From Candidatus Omnitrophota bacterium (lineage in GTDB: Bacteria > Omnitrophota > Gorgyraeia > Duberdicusellales > 4484-171): DNA of 64,000 nt. The notes under the pieces were generated by a model. It had not been told where the DNA came from, ran no database searches, and worked only from the letters and a program-made list of their open reading frames with translations. Both the position numbers and the translations under genes were made by a program. Positions 1-54,044 of the stretch are shown one piece after another (the first letter of the stretch is position 1; the number at the start of each line of letters is the position of its first letter). The stretch is from NCBI GenBank assembly GCA_021735655.1, contig JAIPGM010000006.1:36491-100490 (forward strand), read 5' to 3'.

Positions 1-1209
1 TTCTACATGCTTATGCCCTAACAGTTCCTGGACTTCTCGAATATTAACCCCATTCATTAAAAGATGTGTTGCGAAGCTATGCCTGAGAGTATGCACGCTG
101 GCGCGTTTTATAATTCCGGCTTTCTTTACCGCAATAGCTACAATCTTTTGAACTGTATTGGGACTTATATGATGTCTTCGGATTTTACCACTCCTAGGAT
201 CAATTGAAAGTCGAGAAGATGGAAAAGCATACTGCCACCCCCACTCCTTAGCAGCTTTAGAATATTTGTGCTCTAAAGCATTCGGTAGATATACCTCTCC
301 ATAACCGGCAGCTTTATCTTCTTCGAAAATATTCTTAACTTGCTCTAAATGTTTTCTGAGAGAACTACCTAACGCCTGTGGCAGCATAGTGCTACGGTCT
401 TTATCCCCTTTTGCTCCGCGTAAAAATAAAATATTGCTCTCAAAATCAATATCCTGCACTCGCAAGCGCACGAGCTCCATAAGCCGCAACCCTGAACCAT
501 AAAGCAATTGCACAATTAATAAATCTTTATTCCTTAGTTGTTCAAATAACCCTTGTATTTCCTTAACTGACAAAACTGTTGGTAATTTAGGGCCCCGCTT
601 TGCGCGAACGGTTTCAGCTAAATTATTTACTTCTATTTTTAGAACATCTCGAAATAAAAATAAAAGTGCATTAAAGGCTTGGTTCTGGGTCGAAGATGAA
701 ACTCGACCCTCTATAGCTAGATATGTCAAATAATCTTTAACATCTTCTGGGGTTAGCTTCTGAGGATATATCTGCTTTCGCTTTCCTTTATTTAAATAAT
801 CAAAAAATCTCTTTGCCCATGTAACGTATGTCCTTTCTGTGCTATAAGAAAAATGCTTCACTCGAATGGCATTCGTCATTTTCTTTAACAAATCATCAAA
901 ATTAACATCTTCATCTTTAAATCTAGATACTTCGACAGATTTAATCTTATAAATTTGAGGTGGAGCAAAATTGTCTACATATATACTTATCGCTTCTTTG
1001 GCCTGCTGAAATTGCCACTCTTCAATTTTTATAATCTTTAGCTTTTCAAAAAACTTTTCTTTCTGTTCCTCAAGTGATGATTTTGGACGAATACAACAGA
1101 ATTTAAGAAATCTATCTACCCAATAGGCATAAAAAGGGGCTGTTTTTTCTGTAGCTAATTTCTTTGAAATTAAAAATCTTTGAAATTGAGATAACACACC
1201 TATTTTCAT
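1..1209 (-). CDS. intI: Integron integrase (IntI-type tyrosine recombinase), partial: C-terminus including the catalytic Tyr lies beyond the window edge. An alternative shorter start is at 879.
   Basis: Reverse-strand translation reads ...[21 protein letters not shown]...[13 protein letters not shown]...[38 protein letters not shown]...[36 protein letters not shown]. This contains the [12 protein letters not shown] recombinase box. It also contains the IntI-specific extra patch (compare IntI1 [37 protein letters not shown]). The ORF runs off the window at position 1. It is divergent from the cassette array. Confidence 0.8.
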   Translation of the reverse strand, partial: [403 protein letters not shown]

Positions 1210-1415
1210 GACTTTTCTTTCTTTGCCATAAATCCAATGATATACATAATATACATTTCCTGATATTATAGATAAATTACATAATTAAAGCAACATTTTT
1301 CTTCCAAAATCATTAAAAACATGCTAAAATTTTACTATATATATCAATAAAATATAAAAACATATATTATGCATATTAATTGTTAGATGTAAAATAAAAT
1401 GATAAAAGGAGAAAA
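1210..1415. promoter_or_regulatory. attI / cassette-promoter region between intI and the first cassette. Candidate Pc is TTGCCA (1223-1228), 18 nt spacer, TAATAT (1247-1252), reading toward the cassettes. Candidate attI crossover is G|TTAGAT at 1382-1388.
   Basis: AT-rich 200 nt spacer. The 3' end GTTAGATGTAAAAT matches the R' ends of the downstream attC sites (for example GTGTTAGATGTAAAATGAG at 5900). An AAAGGAG ribosome-binding site then precedes ATG 1416. Confidence 0.4.
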
Positions 1416-2699
1416 ATGAAGCAAATTTTGCGCTATTTTTTGGTTTTCTTTTCCCTAATTATATTTTTAAATTTATCTCCTTTTGCTTTTGGACAACAGG
1501 ACCAATCCTCCGGTGATTTTATTGATGGGAATTTTGAAGAAATAGGTCGTCTCAAGAAAGATTCTCAGAAACTTGATACCAGTAAAACCGGCGATCTGTT
1601 TATGGATACATGGATGGGGATATTAACTAGCCCAAAAGAATTTTTTTCTTGGAATACAAAAGGCGATGTCAAACTGGTCTATGATGGGAGTAACACACTG
1701 GTTGAATTGACACAGAGTAAAGAAGGGCCTGCGTCTATAAGCCAATTCTTTGGTTTTAAAAATAAAGATGCGTCAATTGAGTTTGATGTTAAAATTATAA
1801 AGAAAACTACCTCAGATGAATTAGAAGTGACAGTAGCAGATGTGGGTGGGCCTGCCTGGGGTAAACCCCCTGCAATAGAGATTCCGCTGGAGACATTTCG
1901 GCTCTCAACCATTTATCCGACTAAACATATCTCCATTGACCTTTCAAATAGTAAATATTTTTTAGATAAACAAGCTAAAGATGAAGCTAATGATATGGAC
2001 TTAGTTGATGCATCTATTTTTGGTACGATAACTTTTCGCTTGAAGGGAAATGCTGAAGAACCAACAACAATACGATTGGATAACCTTAAGGTTACTTATT
2101 ATAAAAAAGAAGGCGAAGTGAAACGTTATTATAAAGATAATCAGCCGAAGATAGATAAATTCTATAAAGATGGTAAGCAGGAAGGTCTGGAGAAGCGTTA
2201 TTATCGCAATGGACAGTTACAGTCGGAGCACCCATATAGGAATGGTAAACTAGACGGGATACAAAAGTATTATGCTATAGATGGAAAAGTCTGGGAAGAA
2301 ACGCCTTACAGAGACGGCAAGCGAGAGGGAACACAAAGACGTTACAGAAATGGGGTGCTGACGGAAGAAAGATTATATAAAAATGATAAGATGGTAGAAA
2401 TTAAAATTTATTATAAAACTGGTGAAATAAAATCAGAAGCAACGATTAGGAATGATAAGACAGAAGGGTCATCTAAAGAGTATTATAAAAATGGACAAGT
2501 AATGGAAGAACGTATCTATAGCGATAGCCAGAGAGTAGGCGTAACAAAGCATTACTATGCTAACGGACAGCTAAAAGCAGAGATACCTTACAAGAAGGAT
2601 AGAAAAGATGGCATTGCGAGGATTTATAATGAAGAAGGCAACTTAGTAAAAGAAGAAGTTTGGGAAAAAGATAAACTCATAAGTACTAGAGAGAAATAA
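1416..2699 (+). CDS. Cassette 1: secreted protein with about 12 MORN-variant (YwqK-family-like) repeats.
   Basis: N-terminal signal peptide MKQILRYFLVFFSLIIFLNLSPFAFG. C-terminal half is tandem ~23-aa repeats of form YYxNGQlxxEhPYrNGKxdG. Strong AAAGGAG ribosome-binding site. Followed by attC1. Confidence 0.7.
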   Translation: MKQILRYFLVFFSLIIFLNLSPFAFGQQDQSSGDFIDGNFEEIGRLKKDSQKLDTSKTGDLFMDTWMGILTSPKEFFSWNTKGDVKLVYDGSNTLVELTQSKEGPASISQFFGFKNKDASIEFDVKIIKKTTSDELEVTVADVGGPAWGKPPAIEIPLETFRLSTIYPTKHISIDLSNSKYFLDKQAKDEANDMDLVDASIFGTITFRLKGNAEEPTTIRLDNLKVTYYKKEGEVKRYYKDNQPKIDKFYKDGKQEGLEKRYYRNGQLQSEHPYRNGKLDGIQKYYAIDGKVWEETPYRDGKREGTQRRYRNGVLTEERLYKNDKMVEIKIYYKTGEIKSEATIRNDKTEGSSKEYYKNGQVMEERIYSDSQRVGVTKHYYANGQLKAEIPYKKDRKDGIARIYNEEGNLVKEEVWEKDKLISTREK

Positions 2700-2713
2700 A
2701 TATTAAATTACCC

Positions 2714-2788
2714 ATCTAACAAATCAATCCAGCCGACCCTCCCCGCGCGCTGGCGCGCTTGGTCGGGCGGCTGATTTTTGTGTTATCT
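2714..2788 (+). repeat. attC1 (integron cassette recombination site).
   Basis: ATCTAACAAATCAATCCAGCCGACC, then a GC palindrome gcgcgctggcgcgc, then GGTCGGGCGGCTGATTTTTGTGTTATCT. The flanks are imperfect inverted repeats with an unpaired GCG bulge. R'' is ATCTAAC and R' is GTTATCT. Confidence 0.75.
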
Positions 2789-2794
2789 TAAAAA

Positions 2795-3619
2795 ATGAAT
2801 CAAATACAAATGATAATAAACATAGGAATAGGTGTAATATCTGGCTTAATAACCTTCATTGTATGTGAATACATTCTTAAACCATATCTAAACCAAAAAA
2901 TAAATCCTAAAAAAGTTACTAATTTTTTTAGAAGTGGACCATTTTTGTTTGTCTTGGCTGTCCTGATTGCTTTTATCTTAAGTGCCTCCAACCAACAACT
3001 GAGAATGACATTATTTGGCCATGGCTTAGGCTCTTCTACTGTCGTTAGGGAATTAGAAAATTTATATATGTCAATTCCCGAAATGAAGGATGAAATAATT
3101 AAATCATCTGAGGGAAAGTTAAAGGAAAAAGATTTAATTAACTTGTGTCTGCAAGAAAAATTATATTATTTGAAATTAAAGCAAACCGGGAAATATTCCT
3201 ACAAACAAAATAACGCAAAGGAAGCTATTAATTTTTCAGGCAATCATAAAGTATTGTATCCGAATAGTCAGATTTACTCTGAAACAACATATACAAATGG
3301 CGAACGTTTAGATGCAAATTTTAAAGCTTATTATTACAATGGGGTCATTAGAGCAGAAATTATAACCGACAAATCTCAAATGAACGACACCACGAAAATT
3401 GTAAAATATTATTACAACAACGGCAAAATATGGTGCGAATATAGATATCACGACAACAAACACATGACTGGTATTATTTATGACAAGGAAGGTAATATAC
3501 TAGGTAAAGGAAAAGGTCTTTTTCTAGCAATTCTTATACCTGGTTATTTTGAAAAAATCGAAAGACAAGTTTACGACGTGCGCTACAATCCAAATACATT
3601 TTATGATTATGGATTATGA
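2795..3619 (+). CDS. Cassette 2: membrane-anchored protein with MORN-variant (YwqK-like) repeats.
   Basis: N-terminal TM helix. C-terminal repeats YTNGERLDANFKAYYYNGVIRAEI...KYYYNNGKIWCEYRYHDNKHMTGIIYDKEGN. Followed by attC2. Confidence 0.55.
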   Translation: MNQIQMIINIGIGVISGLITFIVCEYILKPYLNQKINPKKVTNFFRSGPFLFVLAVLIAFILSASNQQLRMTLFGHGLGSSTVVRELENLYMSIPEMKDEIIKSSEGKLKEKDLINLCLQEKLYYLKLKQTGKYSYKQNNAKEAINFSGNHKVLYPNSQIYSETTYTNGERLDANFKAYYYNGVIRAEIITDKSQMNDTTKIVKYYYNNGKIWCEYRYHDNKHMTGIIYDKEGNILGKGKGLFLAILIPGYFEKIERQVYDVRYNPNTFYDYGL

Positions 3620-3632
3620 GAAAATTAATAAA

Positions 3633-3705
3633 AGATAACAAAGCAATCCAGCGGACCAATTCCGCCGCTTCGCGGCTCCATTGGCCGCTGATTTCTATGT
3701 TAGAC
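3633..3705 (+). repeat. attC2.
   Basis: AGATAACAAAGCAATCCAGCGGACCAAT ... ATTGGCCGCTGATTTCTATGTTAGAC. Same architecture as attC1, with an extrahelical T in the left arm. Confidence 0.75.
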
Positions 3706-3732
3706 ATAAAAAAATAGAAAATAAGGAGAAAA

Positions 3733-4587
3733 ATGAAAATAAAAGCAAAGGAGCCGTGGTTGGCAGTTTTCTTGAATCGCTTGTTGCCCGGATTAGGGTA
3801 TCTTTACACGAAGAATTTAGTTAGAGCAATTATTGTATTTTTAGTCACCATATCATTAACGTTTATTGCAGTTTCGACATTGATCGCTTTTGCCAAAAAC
3901 GATACGACTGTTACATCCAAAGTATTATGGGGAGTCATTATTTTTGTTGCAGTCAATTTTATATTTAATTTCGCTATCTTGATAGATGGGTATTTGTGTG
4001 CAAGGAAACATAATCTTTCTAATGACGTAAAGCCTTCGCGCATGGGGCTTCGTATTTTTGCTATCATTGGAACTATAGTTTTATTGTTAACTGGAGGTAT
4101 CTCTATTTTTCCGGTTATCTACATAAGAACTCATTTGATACAGTTTTTTAAAATGCCTACCACATCAATGGCTCCAGCGCTAAAACTTAATGATAAAATC
4201 ATGGTAGATAAAAAAGCATACAATAGCAATAAGCCACAAAGAATGGAGATAGTTGTATTTCTTCCTCCTCACGATAATAGAAAGTATTACCTGAAGAGAA
4301 TTATTGGTTTACCAGGAGAAGAAGTGGAAATCAAGGACGGCAAGGTTTATATAAACAACGAGGTCATAACTAATCTATTCGTGACAAATAACTATTATTA
4401 TAATCAGGGTGATTACGCCAAAAAAGGTAAAAAGATAATCGTGCCCCCAAATAATTATTATGTTTTAGGCGACAATAGCGTTTCAAGTTTGGACAGTAGA
4501 TTCTTTGGATTTGTTCCCGAAAAAAATATAACAGGAAAAGTAGTTAAAATATATTGGCCTCCTGAAAGATCAGGAAGAGTTAAATAA
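3733..4587 (+). CDS. Cassette 3: signal peptidase I (S26 family) with an N-terminal multi-TM, TM2-like domain.
   Basis: S26 boxes are present: PTTSMAPAL (catalytic Ser), YLKRIIGLPGEEVEI (catalytic Lys) and GDNSVSSLDSRFFGFV. N-terminus AVFLNRLLPGLGYLYTKN plus 3-4 TM helices resembles a TM2 domain. Confidence 0.7.
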   Translation: MKIKAKEPWLAVFLNRLLPGLGYLYTKNLVRAIIVFLVTISLTFIAVSTLIAFAKNDTTVTSKVLWGVIIFVAVNFIFNFAILIDGYLCARKHNLSNDVKPSRMGLRIFAIIGTIVLLLTGGISIFPVIYIRTHLIQFFKMPTTSMAPALKLNDKIMVDKKAYNSNKPQRMEIVVFLPPHDNRKYYLKRIIGLPGEEVEIKDGKVYINNEVITNLFVTNNYYYNQGDYAKKGKKIIVPPNNYYVLGDNSVSSLDSRFFGFVPEKNITGKVVKIYWPPERSGRVK

Positions 4588-4594
4588 TAAAAAT

Positions 4595-4678
4595 GTCTAA
4601 CAAGTCGATCCAGCGGACTTAAAAGCGCCGCCAATTAAAGCGCAAAGCGCTTTTAAGCCGCTGATCTTGATGTTATGA
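4595..4678 (+). repeat. attC3.
   Basis: GTCTAACAAGTCGATCCAGCGGAC ... GCCGCTGATCTTGATGTTATGA. Conserved flanks and variable palindromic core. Confidence 0.7.
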
Positions 4679-4688
4679 GAAAAATAAA

Positions 4689-5186
4689 ATGAAAAAAATA
4701 AATAAAATTTTCTTTGTTTTAATTTGCGTTCTTTGTTCTGCGCAATTAGCACTTTATGCAGAATATAATTCAACCCTCTTAAAACATCATATACAATTTT
4801 CTCCACCTACCGGTTGGAATCAAATTTCACTTGGCCCTTTTGCCGCAGATATAGAAGGAATTGCATTCCGCAGCCCTGATGAGAAAGCGGTAATTACCGT
4901 ATCCTTGCCCAAAAAAACTAATTTTATTTCGTTTCATGGTGCTCTTATATTATTTCGTTTAAGCAAAAGGCCAAAGGAAGAAAAAATAACATTTTGTGAT
5001 GAGTCATGCTATATTTTTGATTTTGAACAAATCAATAAAAATAATATAAAAGTACTGACAAAAACCTATAAATTTTTAAAGAAAAACAAACTATATACAA
5101 TCAGCTATTATTCATCTCCCAATGAATATCGACAGTATTTACCCGAATTTAAGAAGGCGTTAGCAACGTTTAAAATTATTGAATAA
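4689..5186 (+). CDS. Cassette 4: secreted hypothetical protein.
   Basis: Signal peptide MKKINKIFFVLICVLCSAQLALYA. No recognisable domain. Flanked by attC3 and attC4. Confidence 0.5.
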   Translation: MKKINKIFFVLICVLCSAQLALYAEYNSTLLKHHIQFSPPTGWNQISLGPFAADIEGIAFRSPDEKAVITVSLPKKTNFISFHGALILFRLSKRPKEEKITFCDESCYIFDFEQINKNNIKVLTKTYKFLKKNKLYTISYYSSPNEYRQYLPEFKKALATFKIIE

Positions 5187-5191
5187 ATGTC

Positions 5192-5276
5192 TCATAACAA
5201 AGCAATCGAGCGGACAATCCTCGCCGCTAAATAGAATTCGGGAAAGCTCGGCTTGCCACTCATTTTTATGTTAGAC
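5192..5276 (+). repeat. attC4.
   Basis: TCATAACAAAGCAATCGAGCGGAC ... GCTCGGCTTGCCACTCATTTTTATGTTAGAC. The 3' arm has diverged more than in the other sites. Confidence 0.65.
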
Positions 5277-5288
5277 GAAAATAAAAAA

Positions 5289-5828
5289 ATGATTAAAAAG
5301 ATAATAGTAATTATTTGTTTTAGTTGCATAATCTGTTTAAATTTAGCATATTCTAAATATGTTGACCCAGACGCGATTGTTAGGATAACACGCAAAATTA
5401 CTCAAAGAATTTACAAAGATATAATTTCAATTAAAGACGAGTATGAAGAATTGAAGGGTTTTGATGAAAACTTTTATGGTAAAGGGACGAGATTCCAATA
5501 TCGCATAGTTAGTCCCACAATCGAATATATTTATTGTCCTGGTACATACAATCAATCTTATGAACGAGTTATGGAATTGTATTGCAACCCTCAACCCCCT
5601 GCTATTCATCTAAGGTTAGTATTCCTTAGCGCTCCTTGTGGCACAAACAAGTGCGACATAGTTAGCATTTGTCCGGATGGAATCGAAGCCCAAATTTATA
5701 TCGAAGAAATTGATCGTTATCTAATATTCAGTCAGCGTAGTGGAAATGCTGAGCTTGATACAAAACTTATGGAAATTTTCCGCAAACACACAAAAAAATA
5801 CAAAACAAAAGAAATACCTTGGGAATAG
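5289..5828 (+). CDS. Cassette 5: secreted Cys-containing hypothetical protein. The start is reassigned to ATG 5289; the ORF-track start at 5253 lies inside attC4.
   Basis: MIKKIIVIICFSCIICLNLAYS signal peptide immediately downstream of the attC4 GTTAGAC. In frame with the track ORF. Confidence 0.5.
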   Translation: MIKKIIVIICFSCIICLNLAYSKYVDPDAIVRITRKITQRIYKDIISIKDEYEELKGFDENFYGKGTRFQYRIVSPTIEYIYCPGTYNQSYERVMELYCNPQPPAIHLRLVFLSAPCGTNKCDIVSICPDGIEAQIYIEEIDRYLIFSQRSGNAELDTKLMEIFRKHTKKYKTKEIPWE

Positions 5829-5832
5829 GCTC

Positions 5833-5908
5833 ATCTAACAAGGCAATCCAGCGGACCTTACCTCGGCCCTAACGGGCTTCGGCAAGGCCGCTGATTTTTG
5901 TGTTAGAT
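5833..5908 (+). repeat. attC5.
   Basis: ATCTAACAAGGCAATCCAGCGGACC ... GGCCGCTGATTTTTGTGTTAGAT. Confidence 0.75.
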
Positions 5909-5970
5909 GTAAAATGAGATCACTAGATGAAAAAAATATTTCTATTAACATGCTATTATAGGAGGGGTAT

Positions 5971-6315
5971 ATGAAAAAAATTTTATTGTGGATGGGTTTT
6001 ATAATAAACCTTTTAGCATTCTTAGGTATTGCCTGCTATGGGTCATGGTCTGTTTGGGCTGGAATACTAAGCATTTCTAAATCAGAATATGCAAATATGT
6101 ATATCGTTTTCGGAATAGTTCCTGTTTTAATAAGCATTCCTTTTAATATCTTTATGAATCTTTGCTTGAACTCAATTCTGGATAAGAAGAAAAGATTCCC
6201 AACAAAATGGGTTATTTTTTCCCAATCAATCATATTTATTTTGACACCAATCGCTCTACTTACTGGGATTGCAGATTTAATTTCAGATGCATGGAGTTTT
6301 TTTACACTGCGTTAG
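5971..6315 (+). CDS. Cassette 6: small multi-TM membrane protein.
   Basis: 114 aa with about 3 hydrophobic helices. GGAGG ribosome-binding site. Followed by attC6. Confidence 0.45.
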   Translation: MKKILLWMGFIINLLAFLGIACYGSWSVWAGILSISKSEYANMYIVFGIVPVLISIPFNIFMNLCLNSILDKKKRFPTKWVIFSQSIIFILTPIALLTGIADLISDAWSFFTLR

Positions 6316-6357
6316 ATACCGTGCAAGTAATTAAAATTATTTAGGAAATTAAAAAAC

Positions 6358-6435
6358 TTCTAACAACTCAATCCAGCTGACCCTTTGACTCGGCCTTTCA
6401 GGCCTCGCTCAGGGCAGCTGATTTTTATGTTATGT
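6358..6435 (+). repeat. attC6.
   Basis: TTCTAACAACTCAATCCAGCTGACCC, then GGCCtttcaGGCC, then AGGGCAGCTGATTTTTATGTTATGT. There is an extrahelical T in the left arm. Confidence 0.75.
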
Positions 6436-6477
6436 GAAAATAATAAAAACATTCTCGCACAAAAAAAGGAGGAGAAA

Positions 6478-6831
6478 ATGGACAAGAAAAAAACAGATTG
6501 GACAAAACCAAGCTTGATAATGCTCGGGATTGATGTTCTGGCGCTGTTCATTATGATGATCGTTTTGGGAAATCTTGTTAATAGATTTAATGAATTATAC
6601 AGTCAATTCAGCATTGAATTATCACCTATTGCACAATTTAGCTTAACCGGATATAAAATATTTTTTCTACTGCTTTTAATTGGGCTTTTGGGCAAAGAGT
6701 TTTTGAAAAATAAAAAGGCAACATTCATAATAAATATATCGGCACTAGCTGTTACCCTTTTTATATTTGTGCCTTTTATAATTTTAGGAATATTTTTTCC
6801 TTTGTTTAACTTAACAAGCATGGGGGGATAA
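6478..6831 (+). CDS. Cassette 7: small membrane protein. The start is reassigned to ATG 6478; the track start at 6385 lies inside attC6.
   Basis: AAGGAGGAG ribosome-binding site 6 nt upstream of ATG 6478. Product MDKKKTDW... is 117 aa with 3 TM helices. Confidence 0.5.
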   Translation: MDKKKTDWTKPSLIMLGIDVLALFIMMIVLGNLVNRFNELYSQFSIELSPIAQFSLTGYKIFFLLLLIGLLGKEFLKNKKATFIINISALAVTLFIFVPFIILGIFFPLFNLTSMGG

Positions 6832-6851
6832 ATTTAAAAGTTTTAATAATC

Positions 6852-7026
6852 ACATAACAAGACAATTCAGCCAACCTTCATCCGTTGCCTGTTGGGTTGG
6901 CTGGTATGCCGAACCCTTCATAATAACAAAATGCTTCGCATTTTAAGTATATGGATTCGGCATAGTTCGACTAAGTATTTTTGCTCGCAAAAATGCCAGT
7001 CTCATTAGCTGATTTTTGTGTTATAG
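6852..7026 (+). repeat. attC7, atypically long and composite (about 175 nt).
   Basis: Canonical left flank ACATAACAAGACAATTCAGCCAACC is followed by GGGTTGGCTGG. A roughly 105-nt insert follows, with two extra hairpins (TATGCCGAA...TTCGGCATA and ATTTTTGC..GCAAAAAT). The conserved right flank GCTGATTTTTGTGTTATAG then ends the site. Confidence 0.6.
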
Positions 7027-7049
7027 GAAAATAAAACGGAGGAGTTAAG

Positions 7050-7322
7050 ATGGAAAATGTAAAAAAAATATATAAAGAAGGAGTAGTAAAGGGTGTTCGT
7101 TATTTTGTTATTACATTATGGGTTAATTTTCTATGCATTCCGTTGTACATGATAAAAAATTTCTTTGAGCCAGAGCAGGGATGGAATTTTCAAGAACACA
7201 CGTTATTAATTATTGGTTTCTGTATTCTAGTTGTTGTATATTTACCATTTGCTGTTTATTTGGCATCGAAAAGATCAAACCAACTGAATACTCCTATATT
7301 GAAAACAAATATTTCGATATAA
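7050..7322 (+). CDS. Cassette 8: small membrane protein (90 aa).
   Basis: GGAGG ribosome-binding site. Two hydrophobic helices. Flanked by attC7 and attC8. Confidence 0.45.
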   Translation: MENVKKIYKEGVVKGVRYFVITLWVNFLCIPLYMIKNFFEPEQGWNFQEHTLLIIGFCILVVVYLPFAVYLASKRSNQLNTPILKTNISI

Positions 7323-7327
7323 TATTT

Positions 7328-7402
7328 GTATAACAAGGCAATCCACCTGACCATACTCGCCGCTTTTAGCGGCTCGTCTGGCCGGTGATTTTTGTGTTAT
7401 GT
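7328..7402 (+). repeat. attC8.
   Basis: GTATAACAAGGCAATCCACCTGACC ... GGCCGGTGATTTTTGTGTTATGT. Confidence 0.7.
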
Positions 7403-7413
7403 GAATATAAAAT

Positions 7414-7986
7414 ATGAATAAAATTGACCTTTTATTTATAGTCTGTCTTCTAGCCTTACGTTTTCTACCTAGAAAATCAGCAAAATATAGATACTATTGG
7501 GTGTTTCCTTTATTAGTCTTTTTTTTAGCTATCGGTATCCGAATTAATTCTAAAATCGAGAGTCGGAAACGTTCAGAAAGAATTCAAGAGCTAGAAAGCA
7601 ATCTTAACGCTTTGCGCGATTATAGCTCTATTGCAAAACTTAATATTTTAGGCTTACCTGCTCGTGCAGGTTCAGGCATAAAATTATCTACTCCAATTTC
7701 AACTTCGCTAGAGAATGCAATAATTGAAAAGGATGGCAAATATTTCCCCACGTGCAGCAAGGAAGCGGAAGAAAAATTTAAGCAGACTATAAAATCTTAT
7801 CCACGATTTCCATTTTCATACTATGGCTTAGCCGTCTGTCTCAGGAGTAAAGAAGATGAAGCTTGGAAGGATTACGCAAATCAAGCCATAGAAATATTTA
7901 AAAAAACTATCAGCATTAAAGATCATAATTCTGGGCACGACCAAGCAATGAAAGAATTAATCAGATATTTAGAAGAAATAAATTAA
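7414..7986 (+). CDS. Cassette 9: membrane-anchored hypothetical protein (190 aa).
   Basis: N-terminal TM segments followed by a charged or coiled region. Flanked by attC8 and attC9. Confidence 0.45.
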   Translation: MNKIDLLFIVCLLALRFLPRKSAKYRYYWVFPLLVFFLAIGIRINSKIESRKRSERIQELESNLNALRDYSSIAKLNILGLPARAGSGIKLSTPISTSLENAIIEKDGKYFPTCSKEAEEKFKQTIKSYPRFPFSYYGLAVCLRSKEDEAWKDYANQAIEIFKKTISIKDHNSGHDQAMKELIRYLEEIN

Positions 7987-8003
7987 AACTAGGTAATTAA
8001 AAC

Positions 8004-8085
8004 ACATAACAAAGCAATCCACCTGACCCTCCTCGCGGCTTCCTGAGACCGCGGGCTCGTCGGGCAGGTGATTTTTGTGTTAGGA
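8004..8085 (+). repeat. attC9, the last attC in the window.
   Basis: ACATAACAAAGCAATCCACCTGACCC ... GGGCAGGTGATTTTTGTGTTAGGA. There is an extrahelical T in the left arm. Confidence 0.75.
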
Positions 8086-8156
8086 GGTAAAAATTTACGC
8101 AAAATTTTCTTTCTTTGCCAAGATTAGAATGCTATAATTGTTTTTAGGAGATAACT

Positions 8157-8888
8157 ATGTTCTGGATTTGGATAATGATTATTATGATAGTAATGGCCGC
8201 TGGGGTTGTAACCTTAGCTCTCCTGCCGACCTCTAAAGAATTGGCTTATTTAGAAAAATTACGAAAAATAGCTGATGATTTGCTTTATAGACTAAAAAAC
8301 ACCTTAAGAGAAGCCTGGAAAGAAAAGAAAAAACTTCCACTACCACTTGTAATTTTGGGGGCTGTCTGGATATTGAATGGCTTATATATAAGCATAAGTA
8401 CTTTAATGACCCCTTCTCAAATCACAAAACTAGAGACTCTAGCTGGTATATTCAGGATCTTAAGCATCGGTTGGATTATTATTGGGGTAACTTTATTTAA
8501 CGGCTATATTTTAAGTAGAAAATTTGCCTTTATCGCCGCAGGAATAGTAATTAGCCTTGGTATTGCTGTTATTGCAGTACCACCGCTTACCCAAGAAGAA
8601 TATCTTCTGCAACAATATGAAATATATCTACAAAATCAACAGTATCAACAAAATACTCTAGGAATTAATGAATATGTAACCTCGCGGCTGGTAGATCCTG
8701 GCGAAGGTAGGCCTACGAAAGCTGAGATAACCAAAGAACAAGCTATAGCTATAATCAATATGCTTATTGCCCTGATTACGATACTTTATCTAATTACTCC
8801 GAAAGCTAAAAAATATTTTGGTATCGAAAAGGAGCAATCTTTTTCATTTAAAGAGGGAATTGGTAGTTCATTTCGTCGCTACCGCTAA
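8157..8888 (+). CDS. Multi-TM membrane protein with a Q-rich segment. It is the first gene after the last attC; it may be an attC-less terminal cassette or the chromosomal boundary.
   Basis: 243 aa with several hydrophobic helices and a QQYEIYLQNQQYQQN stretch. No attC follows it. Its 3' end overlaps era convergently by 4 nt. Confidence 0.45.
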   Translation: MFWIWIMIIMIVMAAGVVTLALLPTSKELAYLEKLRKIADDLLYRLKNTLREAWKEKKKLPLPLVILGAVWILNGLYISISTLMTPSQITKLETLAGIFRILSIGWIIIGVTLFNGYILSRKFAFIAAGIVISLGIAVIAVPPLTQEEYLLQQYEIYLQNQQYQQNTLGINEYVTSRLVDPGEGRPTKAEITKEQAIAIINMLIALITILYLITPKAKKYFGIEKEQSFSFKEGIGSSFRRYR

Positions 8889-47507: not shown

Positions 47508-49280
47508 TTATTCTCTAAATGGTTTATATTCTTTGCCGGACCACTGCATACCTAGGTGCCCGGAAAACTCAAGCATATTAAGTCTAACCCCGTGAACAAT
47601 TACTGCCATAAATCCTAGTAGGATATTTAAAGAATGACCCAAAACAAGAATTATGGCTGCGGCTAAAGCTGCTAATGGATTGTTAATTCCTCCCGATAAA
47701 GCCATATTGTTAAAACTAGAGGCAACAACTACTGTAGCATAGCCAACTGCAAACAACCTAAGATAGGATACTATATCGGAAAAAGAGCTAATAATACTTA
47801 AAGGTAGATCAGCTAAAGAAACCAAAACTCCTTTAAAAAAATTCTTCTGGGGATTAGAAAACAAAATTACTAAACCTAAACCAACAGTTAATAACAACGG
47901 CCCCGAAGCCGGAAAAGGTTTATTTAAAATATAAGTTCCAGCCAGAAAAAATATGGCCCACAAAATAAAAATCCAGCCCACCTGAGCAAGGGCTTTCAAA
48001 GAATTAATAAAGGCAAAAGCCCGCTTTAGATGAGCTATGCTCAAATGACCCACGCCAATAAAAAGACACAAATACATCATAAAATTATGGTTAGAACCGA
48101 CAAAACTGTTAATCCGGTTTATAACCAAATAATTAAACCCGGGCAACTGTCCTATCTTTTCAACCCCAAACCAAGTGCCAGTAACTGCTCCCCAAACAAT
48201 CGTTGCCGCACTTAAAACATAAGCCAGAACGAAAGGTTCTCGAGGCAGCGATCTGAATTTTCTGCTTAAGAAAAAACTCACAGTTAAAAATAAAAATCCG
48301 TAACCGGCATCACCGATAAGCATAGCAAAAAAAAGGCTGAATGATAATAAAAACCAAAAACTTATATCAAACTCATCATAACCAGGAACGGTTCCCATAA
48401 ATTTAAATATCGGTTTCACGATTCCAATCCACCTAGGATTTTTAATTAAGGTCGGCACCTCTTGAGGATCCTCCGGTTCCTGGACCATCACTGCCCAGCC
48501 GTTTTTAGCTGCCGCTAGCTCAACTGCCTCTACTGATTGTTTAGGGCAAAATCCTTGCAAATAATAAATACCTTCCTTGAAACCTGCCCCAAACCGCACA
48601 TGACCAAGCTCCAGACGCTTTAAAAGTTCTTTTCTGTAAATCTTTAAGCAGCTTCGATAGGTTGAGAACTCCCTTAATTGCTTCTCAACACTCCCGAGAT
48701 CTCTTTTAAGGCCATGGATTTTTCTCTCTAAAGACTGTTGGCTTTCCTGAGGAATCCCTACCTCTAAAAAATCCAAACAATCATCATCCTTCGTGCCAAT
48801 AAAAGCAATATAGACCTCTCTTCCTTTTCTAAAAATAATCTGAATCATTTTATCTTTGGGAATACGCTTTAATGCTCTGCTATTGCACCTATATAGTTTA
48901 ACAAAGGCACCGACTCCTTTGAGTTTGTCTAAATCGTTGACTGAAGCATGTCCTAATTTTTTAACGAGCTCCAGGCGTTCTTCCAATTCTTTTAGTCTCC
49001 CAAGACACTGCTGGGTTTGTTGATTAAACCCAATAACCTCTTTAACAACTGAGGTAAGTACAATTACTGGAACATCCTTTCTTTGGTCAACCAAAGCGTC
49101 CATCAATGATGCTGCCTGATCAAGGAGGTTGATCTTATTCTCAAGAGAATCTATTCCACCGGCATGAGGCTTTTGAATATGCTTAATATGGACTAAGCCG
49201 GTTTTCCGCAACTCACAGAGAGCCTGGCTAAGATTCTTTTGATAAACCAAGACTGTGAGCTTTTTCATTTTAACAATCAT
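47508..49280 (-). CDS. V-type ATP synthase subunit I.
   Basis: Hydrophilic N-terminal half, multi-TM C-terminal half, and its position in the operon. Confidence 0.75.
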   Translation of the reverse strand: MIVKMKKLTVLVYQKNLSQALCELRKTGLVHIKHIQKPHAGGIDSLENKINLLDQAASLMDALVDQRKDVPVIVLTSVVKEVIGFNQQTQQCLGRLKELEERLELVKKLGHASVNDLDKLKGVGAFVKLYRCNSRALKRIPKDKMIQIIFRKGREVYIAFIGTKDDDCLDFLEVGIPQESQQSLERKIHGLKRDLGSVEKQLREFSTYRSCLKIYRKELLKRLELGHVRFGAGFKEGIYYLQGFCPKQSVEAVELAAAKNGWAVMVQEPEDPQEVPTLIKNPRWIGIVKPIFKFMGTVPGYDEFDISFWFLLSFSLFFAMLIGDAGYGFLFLTVSFFLSRKFRSLPREPFVLAYVLSAATIVWGAVTGTWFGVEKIGQLPGFNYLVINRINSFVGSNHNFMMYLCLFIGVGHLSIAHLKRAFAFINSLKALAQVGWIFILWAIFFLAGTYILNKPFPASGPLLLTVGLGLVILFSNPQKNFFKGVLVSLADLPLSIISSFSDIVSYLRLFAVGYATVVVASSFNNMALSGGINNPLAALAAAIILVLGHSLNILLGFMAVIVHGVRLNMLEFSGHLGMQWSGKEYKPFRE

Positions 49281-49888
49281 GAATTAACTAATTCCTTTTT
49301 ACGCTCCAATTTAGCTTTAGCAATCTTACCTCTAACTACTCCCGCGGTTTGTAATTCACCTAGATATATTTGAATAACTCGAATATTTTCTTTACTCTCA
49401 GGAATTTTTACTTTCTCAAACAAATTTACCCTTTGAGTGGCAATCCTTAGCTCCTCTTTTAAAATCTCCATCTGCTGATGATAAATTAACATCTTTGCTT
49501 TTAGGATTATCGTTTCTTTTAAGGCCTCAATAGCAGAATCAACCCATAATGGGGTAAGTAATAAGTCGTATTCTTTCTCGCTAAAATCAACTCCTGAAAA
49601 AACCGGTATATCTATTCCGGCAACGTTATCAGTAACAGTTTTTATCTTAGCTACCTTTAAAAATTCCTCAACAGGAACTTCTTGAGCAAAAACATCAACC
49701 CAGCGCAAGACCTGATTTCTTAAACTCTCTGTCTGACCGGCTAAATCTTTAATCGCCTGATACAATTTAATAATTTCAAGCTGAAACTGCTTTTTCTTTA
49801 GAATTAGCATCGGCAGATAGCGCCTGAACCTGACTAAAGATTCCTTTTGACCTTTCAATTCATTCTTAGTTAGTCTAATCTTACTCAT
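49277..49888 (-). CDS. V-type ATP synthase subunit D.
   Basis: [24 protein letters not shown] coiled-coil signature. Confidence 0.8.
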
Positions 49889-51228
49889 CGTTTATTGGAA
49901 AGCTGTTTAGGCCAGAATTCATCTAATAACTCGCTGCGGAAAGATGTTTCCTTAGGTTCAAAACAATCAGCCAGAATCTTCCAGCCTTGATCGAGTGCAT
50001 CTTCTAAAGATATTTTTACTGATAGGTCCATCATCTGAGATTCAAACAACTTACCATATTTAAGAAGTTTTTTATCCCACTCGCTCATCCGAAAGCCCAT
50101 GGCTCGTTTCTCTTCACTTTCTCGATATTGAGCATATAGCTGGATCATCCCATCCATAATCGCCCGATGGTCTTTTCGACTCTTATCGTTAACTTGCTGT
50201 TTTAAGCGGCTTAGAGAACCAAAAGGTTCGATCCGCCCGCCGCGTAAATAAAACTGACCCTCGGTAATGTATCCGGTATTATCGGGAACCGGATGAGTTA
50301 CATCATCTCCAGGCATCGTAGTCACCGCTAAAACCGTGATTGAGCCGGCGTTTTCAAAGTCAACTGCCTTCTCATACCTTCTGGCTAGCTGAGTATAAAG
50401 ATCTCCGGGATAACCCCGATTTGAAGGAACTTGCTCCATGGTAATGGCAATCTCCTTTAAAGCATCGGCAAAGTTAGTCATGTCAGTAAGAAGAACTAGG
50501 ACATCTTTTCCGGCCAAAGCAAATTTTTCAGCCACGGCTAAGCTTAAATCCGGCACCATTAATCCTTCGACTACCGGATCAGAAGCAGTATGCACAAAGA
50601 ATATCGAACGGGAAAGAGACCCGGCTTCTTCTAAAGTATTTTTAAAAAACATATATTGATCAAACTTAAGACCAATCCCCCCTAAAATAATCATGTCTAC
50701 TTCAGCCTGCATGGCAATTCTAGCTAACAATTCATTGTAAGGCTCACCGGACACTGAAAAAATCGGCAGCTTCTGAGAAACCACCAAAGAATTAAATACA
50801 TCAATCATCGGGATATTCGTCCGAATCATCCGTTCGGGAATTATTCTTTTAGCCGGATTAACTGCTGGCCCGGAAATTTCAATTAGGTTCTCAATCAAGG
50901 CAGGTCCTTTGTCGCGAGGTTGACCTGAACCGTCAAATATTCTTCCCAGCATATTTTCCGAAAAGGCAACTTGCATCGGATGCCCTAAGAACCGCACCTC
51001 ATCTTTAGTAGAAACCCCTCGACTTCCTGAAAAAACCTGTAAAGATACAATGTCTCCTTCCAATTTTATTACCTGAGCCAAAGATGACCTGCTAGCGCTT
51101 CGTACTTCAGCTAACTCCTCATAGGCAATTCCCTTAGCCTTTACAGTGATAACATTTCCGGAAACACTCAGTATTTTATTATGAACTTTTTCCATCTTTA
51201 CCCATTTTGGTTTCAACAAACTTTTCAA
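49885..51228 (-). CDS. V-type ATP synthase subunit B.
   Basis: Non-catalytic nucleotide-binding subunit motifs. Confidence 0.85.
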
Positions 51229-52951
51229 TCACCTGTTCTTGCTGCTTAAATTCGGCTGACTCTTGCTGTTTATAATTCAAATCAATAAATAACTGCCTTA
51301 ACTCATAAAAAAAGTTACGGGCTTTTTCTTTATGCTCAAATTCAAACTCTTGATCTAATAGATTACAAAGTTTAGCAAAAACATATTTTTGCCGACCTAG
51401 GCTAGTTGCAGCATCCACCTCATCAAAACCATTCTGTTGCAAATAAACATTATCAATAAACTCTGCCTTTAAATGGAGAATAAAGTCTTCCATCGAAGTT
51501 CCTTCTTCGCCAACTACTTTCATCATCTGAGCAACCTCATTGCCGCTGGCTAATATAGCTTTAGCTTTTTTAACTAACTCCGAATCGATAAAACCCTGAT
51601 AGCGCGACCAACTAGTCAGAGGGTCGATTGAAGGAAACCGACGAGCATTAGCTCGATCGCGAGAAAGACCATGAAAAGCACCAACCACCTTAAGCGTTGC
51701 TTGAGTAACCGGCTCTTCAAAATTACCTCCAGCCGGAGAAACGGTTCCGCCAATAGTCAAACTCCCTTTTTGACCATTTCTCAATTTAACTACCCCTGAG
51801 CGTTCATAAAACTCAGCGATTCGAGACTCTAAATAAGCCGGGTAAGCTTCCTCACCGGGGATTTCCTCCAATCGTCCGGAAACCTCCCGCATAGCCTGAG
51901 CCCAGCGTGAAGTTGAATCAGCTAACAGCAAAACATCTAGGCCCATCTGACGGTAATACTCACCTAGAGTTGTAGCAGTATAAACTGAAGCATCACGGGC
52001 TGAAACTGGCATTGAAGAAGTATTACAAATTATAATCGTACGCTCAATTAATGGTTTATTAGTCCGCGGGTCAACAAGCTCAGGAAACTTTCTTAAAGTC
52101 TCAACTACTTCTCCAGCTCTTTCACCGCAAGCAGCCACGATAACCACATCTATCTCAGCATAGCGACTAGTAAGCTGCTGAAGAACAGTCTTTCCCGAAC
52201 CAAAGGGACCGGGAATACAAAAAGTTCCGCCTTTGGCCACTGGAAATAAACTATCTATTATCCGAGCCTTGGTAATCAATGGTTCCTGAGGAGTAAGTTT
52301 TTCAAGATAAGCAAAAATAGGAATCTTTATCGGCCATTTAAACACCATAGTCAAATCTATAATTTCACCATTAGGGCTTTTTAATTTAGCAATCGTATCT
52401 TTGGTTTTATAGCTGCCTTCGGCGGCTATTTCCTCAACCGTATACTCATCATTAAGATAAAAAGGCACCATAATATAATGTTTAAATATCCCTTCCGGAA
52501 CAACACCTAAAATGCTGCCTTTGGTTACTTTAATTTTTTTAGCCTTAACCAAAGGTTTGAACTCCCATTTCTTATTTGAATCCAAAGCCTCGATTTGCAA
52601 ACCCCGGGGAAGGAAAAAACCGCACTTTTTGGCTAACTCCGGCAAAGGATTTTGCAGCCCGTCGAAAATCTGGCCCAAAAGCCCAGGACCTAGTTGAACC
52701 GAAAGCATCTGACCGGAAAATTCTACTCTATCTCCAATTCGTATCCCTTTAGTGTCTTCAAACACCTGCATATAGGCACTGTCTCCGTTTATTTTTATAA
52801 CTTCAGCCATCAAACGCTCAGTAGATGAAGCCTTTCCTTTAGGCTCACCTAGCAAACAATAGCCGACTTCGTTTTGAACAATATCGCTATCGCATTCAAC
52901 AGTAATCATATTGCCCTGAACAAGAGTAATTTTTCCCAAACGCTGGCTCAT
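51179..52951 (-). CDS. V-type ATP synthase catalytic subunit A.
   Basis: GPFGSGKTV Walker A, and the A-subunit non-homologous insertion. Confidence 0.9.
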
Positions 52952-53442
52952 AGTTTCACCCCAGTCAATTGATCAAAGCGAACAGTGCCTTTTCCTTTAT
53001 CAAAACTAAAAATTCGCTCTACAATTTGTAATTTTAAAAAATATAAAATAAGACTGGCTAAATCAAAGTTATGTTCTAAGGCCCTTTCTTCAATAAACTT
53101 CCACCTAAGTTCAAGCAAATTAATTTCAACCTCTAGTGGCTGCCCGGAGATAGCCTTAGCTATTTCCGCTTTGGGTTGATAGCTTTTATTTTCCTTTTTA
53201 GCTTTTCGCACTAAAGCAATCTCGTTACGCAGGGCTTTCTCAAAACTCCCATAATCACTTAAAACTTGTGGCCCGCCGCTAGTTTCAAAAAAATCATCAA
53301 TATCTATCCGACTGATAACTTTAAACTCCGGATCGGTTAACCACTTCTTAGCCTCTTCCAAAAAAGAGGCTCGGTCAGTCTGGGCTTTTTGATTGAATTG
53401 AAGGCTGGGCAGCTGAGATACAAAATAATAATATTTATCCAT
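52948..53442 (-). CDS. Conserved hypothetical protein embedded in the V-ATPase operon.
   Basis: Encoded between subunits E and A. No motif is recognisable. Confidence 0.45.
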   Translation of the reverse strand: MDKYYYFVSQLPSLQFNQKAQTDRASFLEEAKKWLTDPEFKVISRIDIDDFFETSGGPQVLSDYGSFEKALRNEIALVRKAKKENKSYQPKAEIAKAISGQPLEVEINLLELRWKFIEERALEHNFDLASLILYFLKLQIVERIFSFDKGKGTVRFDQLTGVKL

Positions 53443-54044
53443 TATTTAGTATCAAGCATTGCGCCGATAGCCGGGTTTAGAAAACTTCTCAAAGCTTCCC
53501 CAATAGTTTCATCAGTAAAATCATAATACAAATCCTGACCCTTTATACCGATGCGAAATCCCCTATTGATATTTTTATTAATTTTTATTTCTATTTTTCC
53601 CTTAGCCTTAGCTCTTAACTCTTCATCGAGCAAACTTTCCAATTTCCGTTTGTCTTGCTCGCTTACTAAAACTTCCAAGGCCACTTCTTTATCCTTGGTC
53701 CAATTCTCGACTATTTTTACAATCAGTTTAGCCATAAACTCCGGTTTGAGCTCTCCGGCTACTTTCTGCTTAAGCAACCCCGCCAGCAAACCATTAACTT
53801 CGTTTTTAAGGCTTAGTAAGAAATCTCTGGCCGCCTGCTTTAAGGCATCCTCAGTATTAGCTTTAAGCTTACTGGCTTGAGCTTTACCTTGTGAAACTAT
53901 ATTTTCAGCCTCTCGCTCAGCCTTCTCGATAATTGTATCTGCTTCAGCCTGAGCCTTAGCCACCATATCTTTAGAGATTTTTTGAGCCTCATCCAGCCCA
54001 TCTTTTTTAATTCTAGCAATTAGACTATCCAGTTTTATATCCAT
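53442..54044 (-). CDS. V-type ATP synthase subunit E.
   Basis: Long N-terminal coiled coil AKAQAEADTIIEKAEREAE. First gene of the operon. Confidence 0.7.
   Translation of the reverse strand: MDIKLDSLIARIKKDGLDEAQKISKDMVAKAQAEADTIIEKAEREAENIVSQGKAQASKLKANTEDALKQAARDFLLSLKNEVNGLLAGLLKQKVAGELKPEFMAKLIVKIVENWTKDKEVALEVLVSEQDKRKLESLLDEELRAKAKGKIEIKINKNINRGFRIGIKGQDLYYDFTDETIGEALRSFLNPAIGAMLDTK

Follow-up and report, generated by a model that had tools for sequence, protein, structure and literature searches.

The first two cassettes of an integron in Candidatus Omnitrophota encode repeat proteins of the MORN_2 type, ORF1 (427 aa) and ORF2 (274 aa). We think it rather likely that they are two separately captured cassettes, the first and second of the nine in a chromosomal integron, and that their products are envelope proteins and not immunity proteins. 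Both products are probably binding proteins, exported or anchored in the membrane, and their architecture and location suggest a role in binding or adhesion. That both ORFs are MORN-variant repeat proteins in consecutive integron cassettes had been stated in a preliminary description of this DNA, and is confirmed by the match of ORF1 to the Pfam MORN_2 model and by the sites attC1 and attC2.

The integron and its array

The window (the whole 64-kb stretch of DNA analysed here) begins within intI, an integron integrase gene on the minus strand (1-1209). The left edge cuts the gene, of whose 450 amino acids 403 are present; the complete 450-aa version was seen on an identical contig of 36.7 kb (L005). 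By its ThrRS, the closest species-representative genome is a MAG labelled 'uncultured Planctomycetia' (78% identity), followed by matches of about 58% spread over many phyla. The product scores 366.1 bits against the NCBIfam integron integrase model TIGR02249 (cut-off 265), and about 106 amino acids lie upstream of the part that matches. The intI-attI intergenic region (1210-1382, plus strand) contains a candidate cassette promoter, TTGCCA-16-CATAAT at 1223-1250, recognized by consensus match only (10 of 12 positions). It also contains the attI recombination point G|TT at 1382|1383, which lies in TGTTAGAT at 1381-1388 (core GTTAGAT, 1382-1388). No convincing promoters of their own were found for the cassettes. 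In integron arrays, expression is highest for the first two cassettes.

Nine attC sites are located within 2714-8085. They possess the conserved R''/L''/L'/R' elements and are all similar to one another, with compensatory changes in 6 of 17 stem pairs. As is characteristic of integron cassettes, the array adjoins an integrase gene and attI, and cassettes 1 and 2 each end in an attC site with these four elements and an imperfect hairpin. Cassette 1 (1383-2782, plus strand; 1400 nt) consists of ORF1 and attC1 and runs from the G|TT of attI to that in the R' site of attC1 (2714-2788, plus strand; 79.8 bits with covariance model R1), the bottom strand of which folds into its hairpin at -19.9 kcal/mol (z -4.8). 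Cassette 2 (2783-3699, plus strand; 917 nt), lying between the R' G|TT of attC1 and that of attC2, consists of ORF2 and attC2 (3633-3705, plus strand; 77.9 bits with the same model; -20.7 kcal/mol, z -5.5).

Hydropathy analysis revealed N-terminal hydrophobic segments in all nine cassette ORFs, and the product of cassette 3 is signal peptidase I. The array is akin to sedentary chromosomal integrons with exported cassette products: intI and the cassettes are divergently oriented, the attC sites are uniform, every cassette has a single ORF in one common orientation and lacks a convincing promoter, and signal peptides or membrane helices are frequent. Exported and membrane proteins have been reported to be enriched among cassette proteins in general (PMC10963911). 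The present array differs from the reported pools in degree, since nine of nine products have a hydrophobic N-terminus, whereas in the pools approximately 11-14% possess a signal peptide and about a third either a signal peptide or a membrane helix (PMC10963911). It differs also in that one of its cassettes specifies signal peptidase I.

Cassette 1 occurs as a discrete unit in two array contexts. The sequence from 1381 to 2785 (1405 nt) is 99.9-100% identical in L092, L093 and L094, which derive from other metagenomes. The neighbours there differ on both sides: another attC (29.9-33.4 bits) precedes cassette 1, a pilin-like cassette follows it, and cassette 2 is absent. The identity of these copies ends exactly at the G|TT recombination points; with L092 it starts at 1381. 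Different contexts together with G|TT junctions, the marks of a discrete mobile unit, were found for cassette 1 only, and no second copy of cassette 2 was present in the collections searched.

ORF1 and its MORN_2 repeats

ORF1 (1416-2699, plus strand) is preceded by AGGAG 7 nt upstream of its ATG, and an identical protein is present in the databases (P0001). Residues 1-26 (1416-1493, plus strand) form a predicted Sec signal peptide, MKQILRYFLVFFSLIIFLNLSPFAFG|QQ. A single hydrophobic stretch (aa 8-26, hydropathy peak 2.1) has K2 and R6 before it and A-F-G|QQ, a cleavage-type motif of the A-x-G kind, after it. The signal peptide and topology calls for both proteins are predictions only, made from a hydropathy calculation and the positive-inside rule.

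Eight tandem MORN_2 repeats occupy aa 233-422 (2112-2681, plus strand), as found by Pfam, by alignment and with a repeat HMM. The units, recognized by eye and as eight domains by the HMM, are 23-24 aa in length with the consensus G..K.YY.NG....E..Y...K... The general MORN_2 unit pattern (22-24 aa, Y-x-x-N-G-x-x-x-x-E-x-x-Y-x-x-G/D-K) occurs eight times in ORF1 and three to five times in ORF2. ORF1 scores 95.7 bits against MORN_2 (PF07661; E 1.7e-28), above the gathering score of 29.6, and four stretches are individually significant. The units have diverged at the DNA level, where the period is 72 nt and the identity 71-76%. A database search at E <= 1e-3 returns 855 relatives, almost all of which carry PF07661, and the repeats align with other database proteins at up to 192 bits. 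Because of the PF07661 score, the tandem units and the 855 relatives, the repeats are not mere low-complexity sequence rich in K and Y. None of the remaining ORFs in the window has such repeats.

A single-sequence AlphaFold2 model of full-length ORF1 places regular strand pairs over aa 245-426, at low confidence (mean pLDDT 39.8). A sequence search of the PDB with ORF1 returned no match, and neither ORF1 nor the repeat profile led by sequence to any solved MORN_2 structure. WD40 and designed-repeat PDB entries that matched a profile of the 24-aa repeat were rejected as spurious, having no significant stretch.

The N-terminal domain of ORF1

Between the signal peptide and the repeats lies a domain (aa 28-232; 1497-2111, plus strand) that is predicted to comprise two helices followed by a beta-sandwich of the carbohydrate-binding-module (CBM) type, having the jelly-roll fold of such modules. 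Its identity to the CBM4, CBM9, CBM16 and CBM22 beta-sandwiches, which have a galactose-binding-domain-like fold, is just 8-20%, and unlike these the ORF1 family has two extra N-terminal helices after F-x-D-G-x-F-E. The family numbers 68 relatives and is uncatalogued: no Pfam or NCBIfam model, including the Pfam CBM models, matches the domain or its relatives, so that it belongs to no CBM family listed in either collection, and no PDB chain was found with a sequence profile. Its members share a conserved F-x-D-G-x-F-E start and R-L-D-N end, which we take to recall modules of the CBM4/9 type.

In none of the 68 relatives is the domain joined to MORN_2 repeats. The larger relatives combine it with domains of kinds that are usually extracellular (FG-GAP, RTX, dockerin, Ig-like and beta-helix), and the genes for the stand-alone relatives adjoin HxsD-like and radical-SAM genes, not carbohydrate-active enzymes. 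An attC-like sequence after P0002 in L001 (3207-3313), with the ends TCTAACAA...GTGTTAT, forms no hairpin (z -0.45) and was missed by the attC model; P0002 is therefore not claimed to be cassette-borne.

ORF2

ORF2 (2795-3619, plus strand) has no obvious Shine-Dalgarno sequence. Its start at 2795 is supported by an alignment from residue 1 with P0122, its sole relative (48% identity, collinear); a scan of JGI metagenomes found no member of the ORF2 family. Two transmembrane helices are predicted at about aa 6-28 and 44-65 (2810-2989, plus strand; hydropathy peaks 2.35 and 2.26), both of which are conserved in P0122; the hydrophobic stretches themselves span about aa 6-24 and 44-62. The loop between them, KPYLNQKINPKKVTNFFR, is rich in K and R (four K, one R), and by the positive-inside rule it would be cytoplasmic and the C-terminal domain outside.

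Residues 148-240 (3236-3514, plus strand) contain three to five degenerate MORN_2-like units, according to Pfam, BLASTP and the ORF1-repeat HMM. The score against PF07661 is 27.3 bits (E 2.9e-6), 2.3 bits under the gathering score of 29.6, and a BLASTP alignment with ORF1 spans the repeats at E 2e-9. An HMM made from the eight repeats of ORF1 only scores ORF2 at 19.8 bits, a value reached by none of 1000 composition-preserving shuffles of its soluble part (mean -2.4, sd 4.5, maximum 10.7). Three repeats are recognized by this HMM, within aa 155-222, and inspection by eye shows part of a fourth. These results lend independent support to a MORN_2 relationship that appears real but degenerate. 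The repeat block (about aa 148-240, as delimited by eye) is followed by a tail of 34 aa, the first 29 of which align with P0122; ORF2 is therefore not strictly repeat-ended.

The preliminary description had both cassettes ending in tandem repeats of ~23 aa, one with a signal peptide and the other with a transmembrane anchor. The two N-terminal features are both predicted by hydropathy, for ORF1 and ORF2 respectively. The description of the repeats is accurate for the eight units of ORF1, and needs correction for the few degenerate units and the tail of ORF2. The MORN_2 profile likewise recognizes ORF1 clearly and leaves ORF2 just under the threshold. The alternative mentioned there, that the repeats are K/Y-rich low-complexity sequence, fails for ORF1 on its profile match and relatives and for ORF2 on the shuffling result.

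Proposed role and alternatives

Since ORF1 is predicted to be exported and ORF2 to be anchored in the membrane, we propose both as proteins of envelope or surface interaction. The cassettes would be transcribed from the promoter in the intI-attI region. ORF1 would be exported by the Sec pathway and cleaved after AFG26, and the mature protein would be a two-module binder. Its CBM-like beta-sandwich may recognize a glycan or other surface ligand, and its eight-repeat MORN_2 sheet, presumably elongated and formed of stacked beta-hairpins, may serve as a further surface for binding or spacing in the periplasm, at the cell surface or outside the cell. The helical hairpin of ORF2 would hold that protein in the inner membrane with its short MORN_2 module facing the periplasm. 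Both would act as proteins of the adhesin or adaptor type, shuffled in and out by the integrase. Surface-binding modules were the second of two options in the preliminary description, and it is this one that we favour.

Exported MORN_2 proteins are known elsewhere. In Fusobacterium, signal peptides are present in 87% of 697 MORN2 genes and the proteins have been proposed to be surface-associated, with function not known (PMC4222103); MORN2 proteins have also been reported from outer-membrane vesicles (bioRxiv 10.1101/534297). The exported MORN2 proteins of Fusobacterium and Helicobacter bilis resemble those described here in the tandem repeat of 22-24 aa, the signal peptide in most members, the variable added domains and the clustering of genes (three MORN_2 genes in L088). 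The differences are that here the genes are single-gene integron cassettes of an uncultured, non-fusobacterial organism, that ORF1 carries an N-terminal domain unpaired with MORN_2 in its 68 relatives, and that ORF2 has a two-helix anchor and very few, degenerate repeats. The only NCBIfam model to match the repeats is that of the LIC20035 family adhesin of Leptospira (NF033566; ORF1 60.3 bits, ORF2 25.7 bits). Both scores are far below its cut-off of 250 bits and the match covers the repeats only, and neither protein is a member of that family.

A narrower version of the favoured reading makes ORF1 a secreted accessory for polysaccharide capture, in which the CBM-like domain binds the substrate and MORN_2 attaches it to the cell or an enzyme partner. 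Dockerin modules in some relatives of the N-terminal domain and the apparent CBM4/9 resemblance of the F-x-D-G-x-F-E and R-L-D-N motifs are consistent with such a function. Against these stand the lack of any glycoside hydrolase or lyase found in the array, the lack of a matching Pfam CBM model and the HxsD-like and radical-SAM neighbours of the stand-alone relatives, and we regard this specialization as conceivable and rather doubtful.

The other option in the preliminary description, that these are orphan immunity-like proteins, would have the MORN_2 (YwqK-like) repeats bind and neutralize an incoming toxin and the integron stockpile such genes. The name invites it: MORN_2 matches are called "YwqK family antitoxin" or [quoted passage not shown], and in Bacillus subtilis YwqK is given as the antitoxin that pairs with, and neutralizes, the LXG toxin YwqJ (PMC8321402). 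Furthermore, toxin-antitoxin cassettes are frequent in integron arrays, one relative (L087) adjoins a SocA/PemK pair, and L001 has a ParE cassette. Going by source names, YwqK and the present proteins share a repeat family. In the ywqH-L operon the gene for YwqK comes immediately after that for its toxin (PMC8321402), whereas here there is no toxin gene: Pfam, NCBIfam and PADLOC, the last without any match to the cassette proteins, revealed no toxin domain among the products of the nine cassettes and of the genes bordering the integron, nor around cassette 1 in its alternative context. Expression of YwqJ inside the cell stops growth (PMC8321402), whereas ORF1 and ORF2 are predicted to be extracytoplasmic, exported or membrane-anchored, and have extra domains; the 200-aa CBM-like domain of ORF1 has no obvious immunity role. 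Thus neither an adjoining toxin gene nor, by prediction, a location in the compartment of the toxin links them to immunity of the YwqK type.

The name itself carries little weight. Among the closest relatives of ORF1 that start with Met, 94 of 117 (~80%) have an N-terminal hydrophobic segment, and some of the relatives with such export-type segments are labelled "YwqK family antitoxin". One of them, the Fusobacterium protein P0008 (547 aa; start MKKIFIILFLMLSIFTVINA), has an obvious signal peptide, and the Fusobacterium studies treat such proteins as surface proteins with no assigned function. The label on proteins of this kind is thus a transferred name and not functional evidence. Effectors and toxins that act in the periplasm do have exported immunity proteins, so that export alone is compatible with an immunity role; taken together, the evidence makes immunity improbable for ORF1 and ORF2.

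Finally, the earlier suggestion that the two are divergent paralogues, taken here to mean duplication and divergence within the array to give one functional unit, is largely refuted and very improbable: the cassettes are adjacent, have a repeat type in common and possess very similar attC sites, but all nine attC sites are similar, nothing beyond the repeat motif is shared by the two proteins (BLASTP 43.5 bits, with 35% identity across 86 aa), the N-terminal architectures are unrelated, ORF1 repeats reach far higher scores with other proteins and the one relative of ORF2 is P0122, each ORF is absent from the reported database matches of the other, and cassette 1 occurs elsewhere with different neighbours on both sides and without cassette 2.

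Significance

Cassettes that encode MORN_2 proteins are a fairly ordinary find, and nothing here overturns current understanding. Cassette 1 is nevertheless a clean case of an integron cassette moving in nature, in an uncultured lineage, and is seen across independent metagenomes. For MORN_2 proteins in general, the automatically assigned name "YwqK family antitoxin" should not be taken to indicate a function. The uncatalogued CBM-like family, with its 68 representatives, adds modestly to the range of extracellular binding modules on record.

More speculatively, and we consider this unlikely as a whole, the N-terminal domain of ORF1 may represent an undescribed extracellular binding family whose fusion to MORN_2 is so far unique, ORF1 may be a cassette-borne surface adhesin open to horizontal exchange, and the entire array may be a toolkit for remodelling of the cell surface. 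If true, the toolkit would comprise all of the exported and membrane products of the array plus the array's own signal peptidase, and the bacterium would swap the ORF1 adhesin at the top-expressed position of the integron, thereby changing what it sticks to.

Integron and cassette organization

The two genes at 1416-3619 lie in two consecutive gene cassettes, as the preliminary description had it: an integron integrase gene adjoins them, attC recombination sites follow, and each of the two is bounded by G|TT. The integrase gene (1-1209, minus strand; TIGR02249, 366 bits, cut-off 265) flanks them on the left and is truncated by the window edge. Its complete form, encoding 450 aa, is found on the identical 36.7-kb contig L005 (L005 7048-8400), where it is followed by ordinary chromosomal genes. 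About 106 residues of the 450-aa protein lie ahead of the TIGR02249 match; a typical integron integrase has some 320-340 aa.

Nine attC sites are located between 2714 and 8085, with common ends TAACAA...GTTA and inner repeats CAATCCAGC and GCTGATTTTTG. Imperfect hairpins are predicted for attC1 (z -4.8) and attC2 (z -5.5), and an alignment of eight sites shows compensatory changes at 6 of the 17 pairs in the stem. A covariance model trained on eight sites recovered attC7, which had been left out of the training (29.1 bits, E 1.5e-4), and found no further site in the rest of the 64 kb. attC7 (6852-7026) spans about 175 nt, of which an insertion at its centre makes up about 100 nt, the other eight being 73-85 nt. 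From these sites and the G|TT bounds, cassette 1 is delimited at 1383-2782 and cassette 2 at 2783-3699, both on the plus strand. They carry ORF1 (1416-2699, plus strand, 427 aa) and ORF2 (2795-3619, plus strand, 274 aa), respectively. The opposite strand of 1416-3619 holds short overlapping ORFs only, and no Rfam family matches in this interval. A 32-nt direct repeat (TTTTCTTTCTTTGCCA..., 81% identical) lies just outside either end of the array, one copy (1213-1244) beside the start of intI and the other (8105-8136) 20 nt past attC9; in DNA so rich in A and T, the match may be due to chance.

The MORN_2 repeats

ORF1 scores 95.7 bits (E 1.7e-28) against Pfam MORN_2 (PF07661; gathering score 29.6), with eight units of 23-24 aa each at residues 233-422. 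Of its 855 significant relatives in the database, nearly all bear the PF07661 annotation. ORF2 reaches 27.3 bits (E 2.9e-6), 2.3 bits short of the gathering score, and BLASTP aligns it with ORF1 across the repeats (E 2e-9). As an independent check an HMM built from the ORF1 repeats alone was run on ORF2, giving 19.8 bits, which exceeds all 1000 shuffles of its soluble part (mean -2.4, sd 4.5, maximum 10.7). Because of the Pfam scores, the BLASTP match and the shuffle control, the repeats are not to be dismissed as low-complexity sequence, and their assignment to the MORN variant type is confirmed. In formal terms ORF2 is a degenerate MORN_2 member below threshold, with 3-5 units. No other ORF of the window has repeats of this type.

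Architecture of ORF1 and ORF2

By hydropathy prediction one protein has a signal peptide and the other a transmembrane anchor, as first described. Residues 1-26 of ORF1 resemble a Sec signal peptide, with K2, R6, a hydrophobic core at aa 8-26 and A-F-G|QQ. In ORF2 a loop with four lysines and one arginine links two hydrophobic helices (about aa 6-28 and 44-65); following the positive-inside rule, we infer a cytoplasmic loop and an outward-facing C-terminal part that contains the repeats. Among 5.8 billion proteins the only relative of ORF2 is P0122 (48% identical), collinear from residue 1 through the two helices, the linker and the repeats into the C-terminal tail, most of which is covered. 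P0122 comes from a 1.2-kb contig on which no attC is visible. JGI metagenomes, when scanned, gave no more family members.

Residues 28-232 of ORF1 match no Pfam or NCBIfam model. By word-indexed search the sole relative of this part is P0002 (236 aa, 50% identical), which ends precisely at the start of ORF1's repeats. When 1.84 billion representatives were searched exhaustively with a profile, 68 relatives emerged, 25 of them stand-alone proteins of ≤320 aa and 29 exceeding 700 aa. In the larger ones the domain is accompanied by FG-GAP, RTX, dockerin, Ig-like and beta-helix domains, a typically extracellular set of partners. No Pfam or NCBIfam model covers the domain in the relatives tested, nor does any PDB chain match by sequence profile. 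AlphaFold2, given a 28-sequence alignment, returned a model in which two helices precede a beta-sandwich with some ten strands (pLDDT 86.1, pTM 0.84). The domain family is uncatalogued, and its predicted fold resembles that of carbohydrate-binding modules (CBMs). Among the 68 relatives ORF1 alone has MORN_2 repeats, a fusion unique so far.

The surroundings of stand-alone relatives were compared (L089 891-2586; L090 431-2612; L091 4404-6801; L001 633-3154). Some have a small ORF directly downstream, along with a radical-SAM gene and an HxsD-like gene (TIGR03976 at 36-43 bits; cut-off 50), and others adjoin a B12-binding radical-SAM gene. The family could be linked to a peptide-modification system.

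Immunity or binding

It had been suggested that ORF1 and ORF2 could be orphan immunity-like proteins of the YwqK type, an idea that rests on the family name. The ywqH-L operon of Bacillus subtilis pairs ywqK with ywqJ, the gene of an LXG toxin, and YwqJ induced inside the cell arrests growth (PMC8321402). Here no toxin domain turned up in the cassettes, among the genes flanking the integron or at the other location of cassette 1, and both proteins look extracytoplasmic by hydropathy. Moreover, the nearest relatives of the ORF1 repeats include Fusobacterium proteins named "YwqK family antitoxin" by NCBI which start with textbook signal peptides, and overall 94 of 117 relatives have an N-terminal hydrophobic segment. 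According to published analyses, the 697 Fusobacterium MORN2 genes studied have no known function and 87% of them specify signal peptides; a surface or adhesion role has been proposed (PMC4222103; bioRxiv 10.1101/534297). On these grounds we consider immunity improbable and favour exported or membrane-anchored binding proteins, a function inferred from architecture. Three MORN_2 genes (281, 674 and 614 aa) lie within 7.5 kb on the contig of P0004, a relative of the ORF1 repeats (L088 2452-9943); such genes therefore cluster outside Fusobacterium too.

Array content and host

All nine cassette ORFs, and a 243-aa ORF past the last attC (8157-8888), carry a hydrophobic segment at the N-terminus, be it a signal peptide or a membrane helix. 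In surveys of cassette ORFs roughly 11-14% had signal peptides and about a third had either a signal peptide or a membrane helix (PMC10963911), by which measure this array is unusually uniform, even though nine is a small number. Within cassettes 2-9 (2783-8085) and 8157-8888 the only known family is in cassette 3 (3733-4587, plus strand), a signal peptidase I (Peptidase_S26, 147 bits; TIGR02227, 158 bits) extended at its N-terminus by about 120 aa that include several hydrophobic helices. It is unusual for a secretion enzyme of the housekeeping type to be a cassette beside those for exported proteins.

The host is uncultured. For its threonyl-tRNA synthetase the best match, at 78% identity, comes from a MAG labelled "uncultured Planctomycetia", the next-best (about 58%) coming from genomes of many phyla. 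The genome has a G+C content of about 37%; the window shows a strongly negative GC skew throughout and includes V/A-type ATPase subunit genes (47508-54044, minus strand; A subunit 51179-52951, I-subunit-like 47508-49280).

Movement of cassette 1

Window positions 1381-2785 recur at 99.9-100% identity on JGI contig L092 and on L093 and L094 (two assemblies of run ERR2191545). On all three, cassette 1 lies away from attI, is preceded by another attC (29.9-33.4 bits, covariance model) and is followed after attC1 by a pilin-like cassette in place of cassette 2. The 186-aa product of the latter (L092 1622-2182) has a prepilin-type N-terminal methylation motif (N_methyl, PF07963, 28.3 bits; cut-off 21.2) and is an exported or surface protein. 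On either side the identity ends inside the core site common to both contexts, and the junctions are therefore at the canonical G|TT, as expected of integrase-mediated excision and reinsertion. This is direct evidence of cassette relocation, and the adjacency of the two MORN_2 cassettes in the window is one arrangement among several.

Diversification of side-by-side paralogues is unsupported: ORF1 and ORF2 share 43.5 bits confined to the repeats, ORF1's repeats score up to 192 bits against unrelated database proteins, and the cassettes travel separately, since cassette 1 occurs elsewhere without cassette 2. The two-cassette observation is confirmed. Its interpretation holds as regards the type of repeat, the signals for export and the status as cassettes, but not as regards immunity or the diversification of paralogues. 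ORF1 and ORF2 are of known kinds, MORN_2 repeat proteins in integron cassettes, to which the uncatalogued CBM-like domain family and the direct evidence of cassette relocation add two modest extras.
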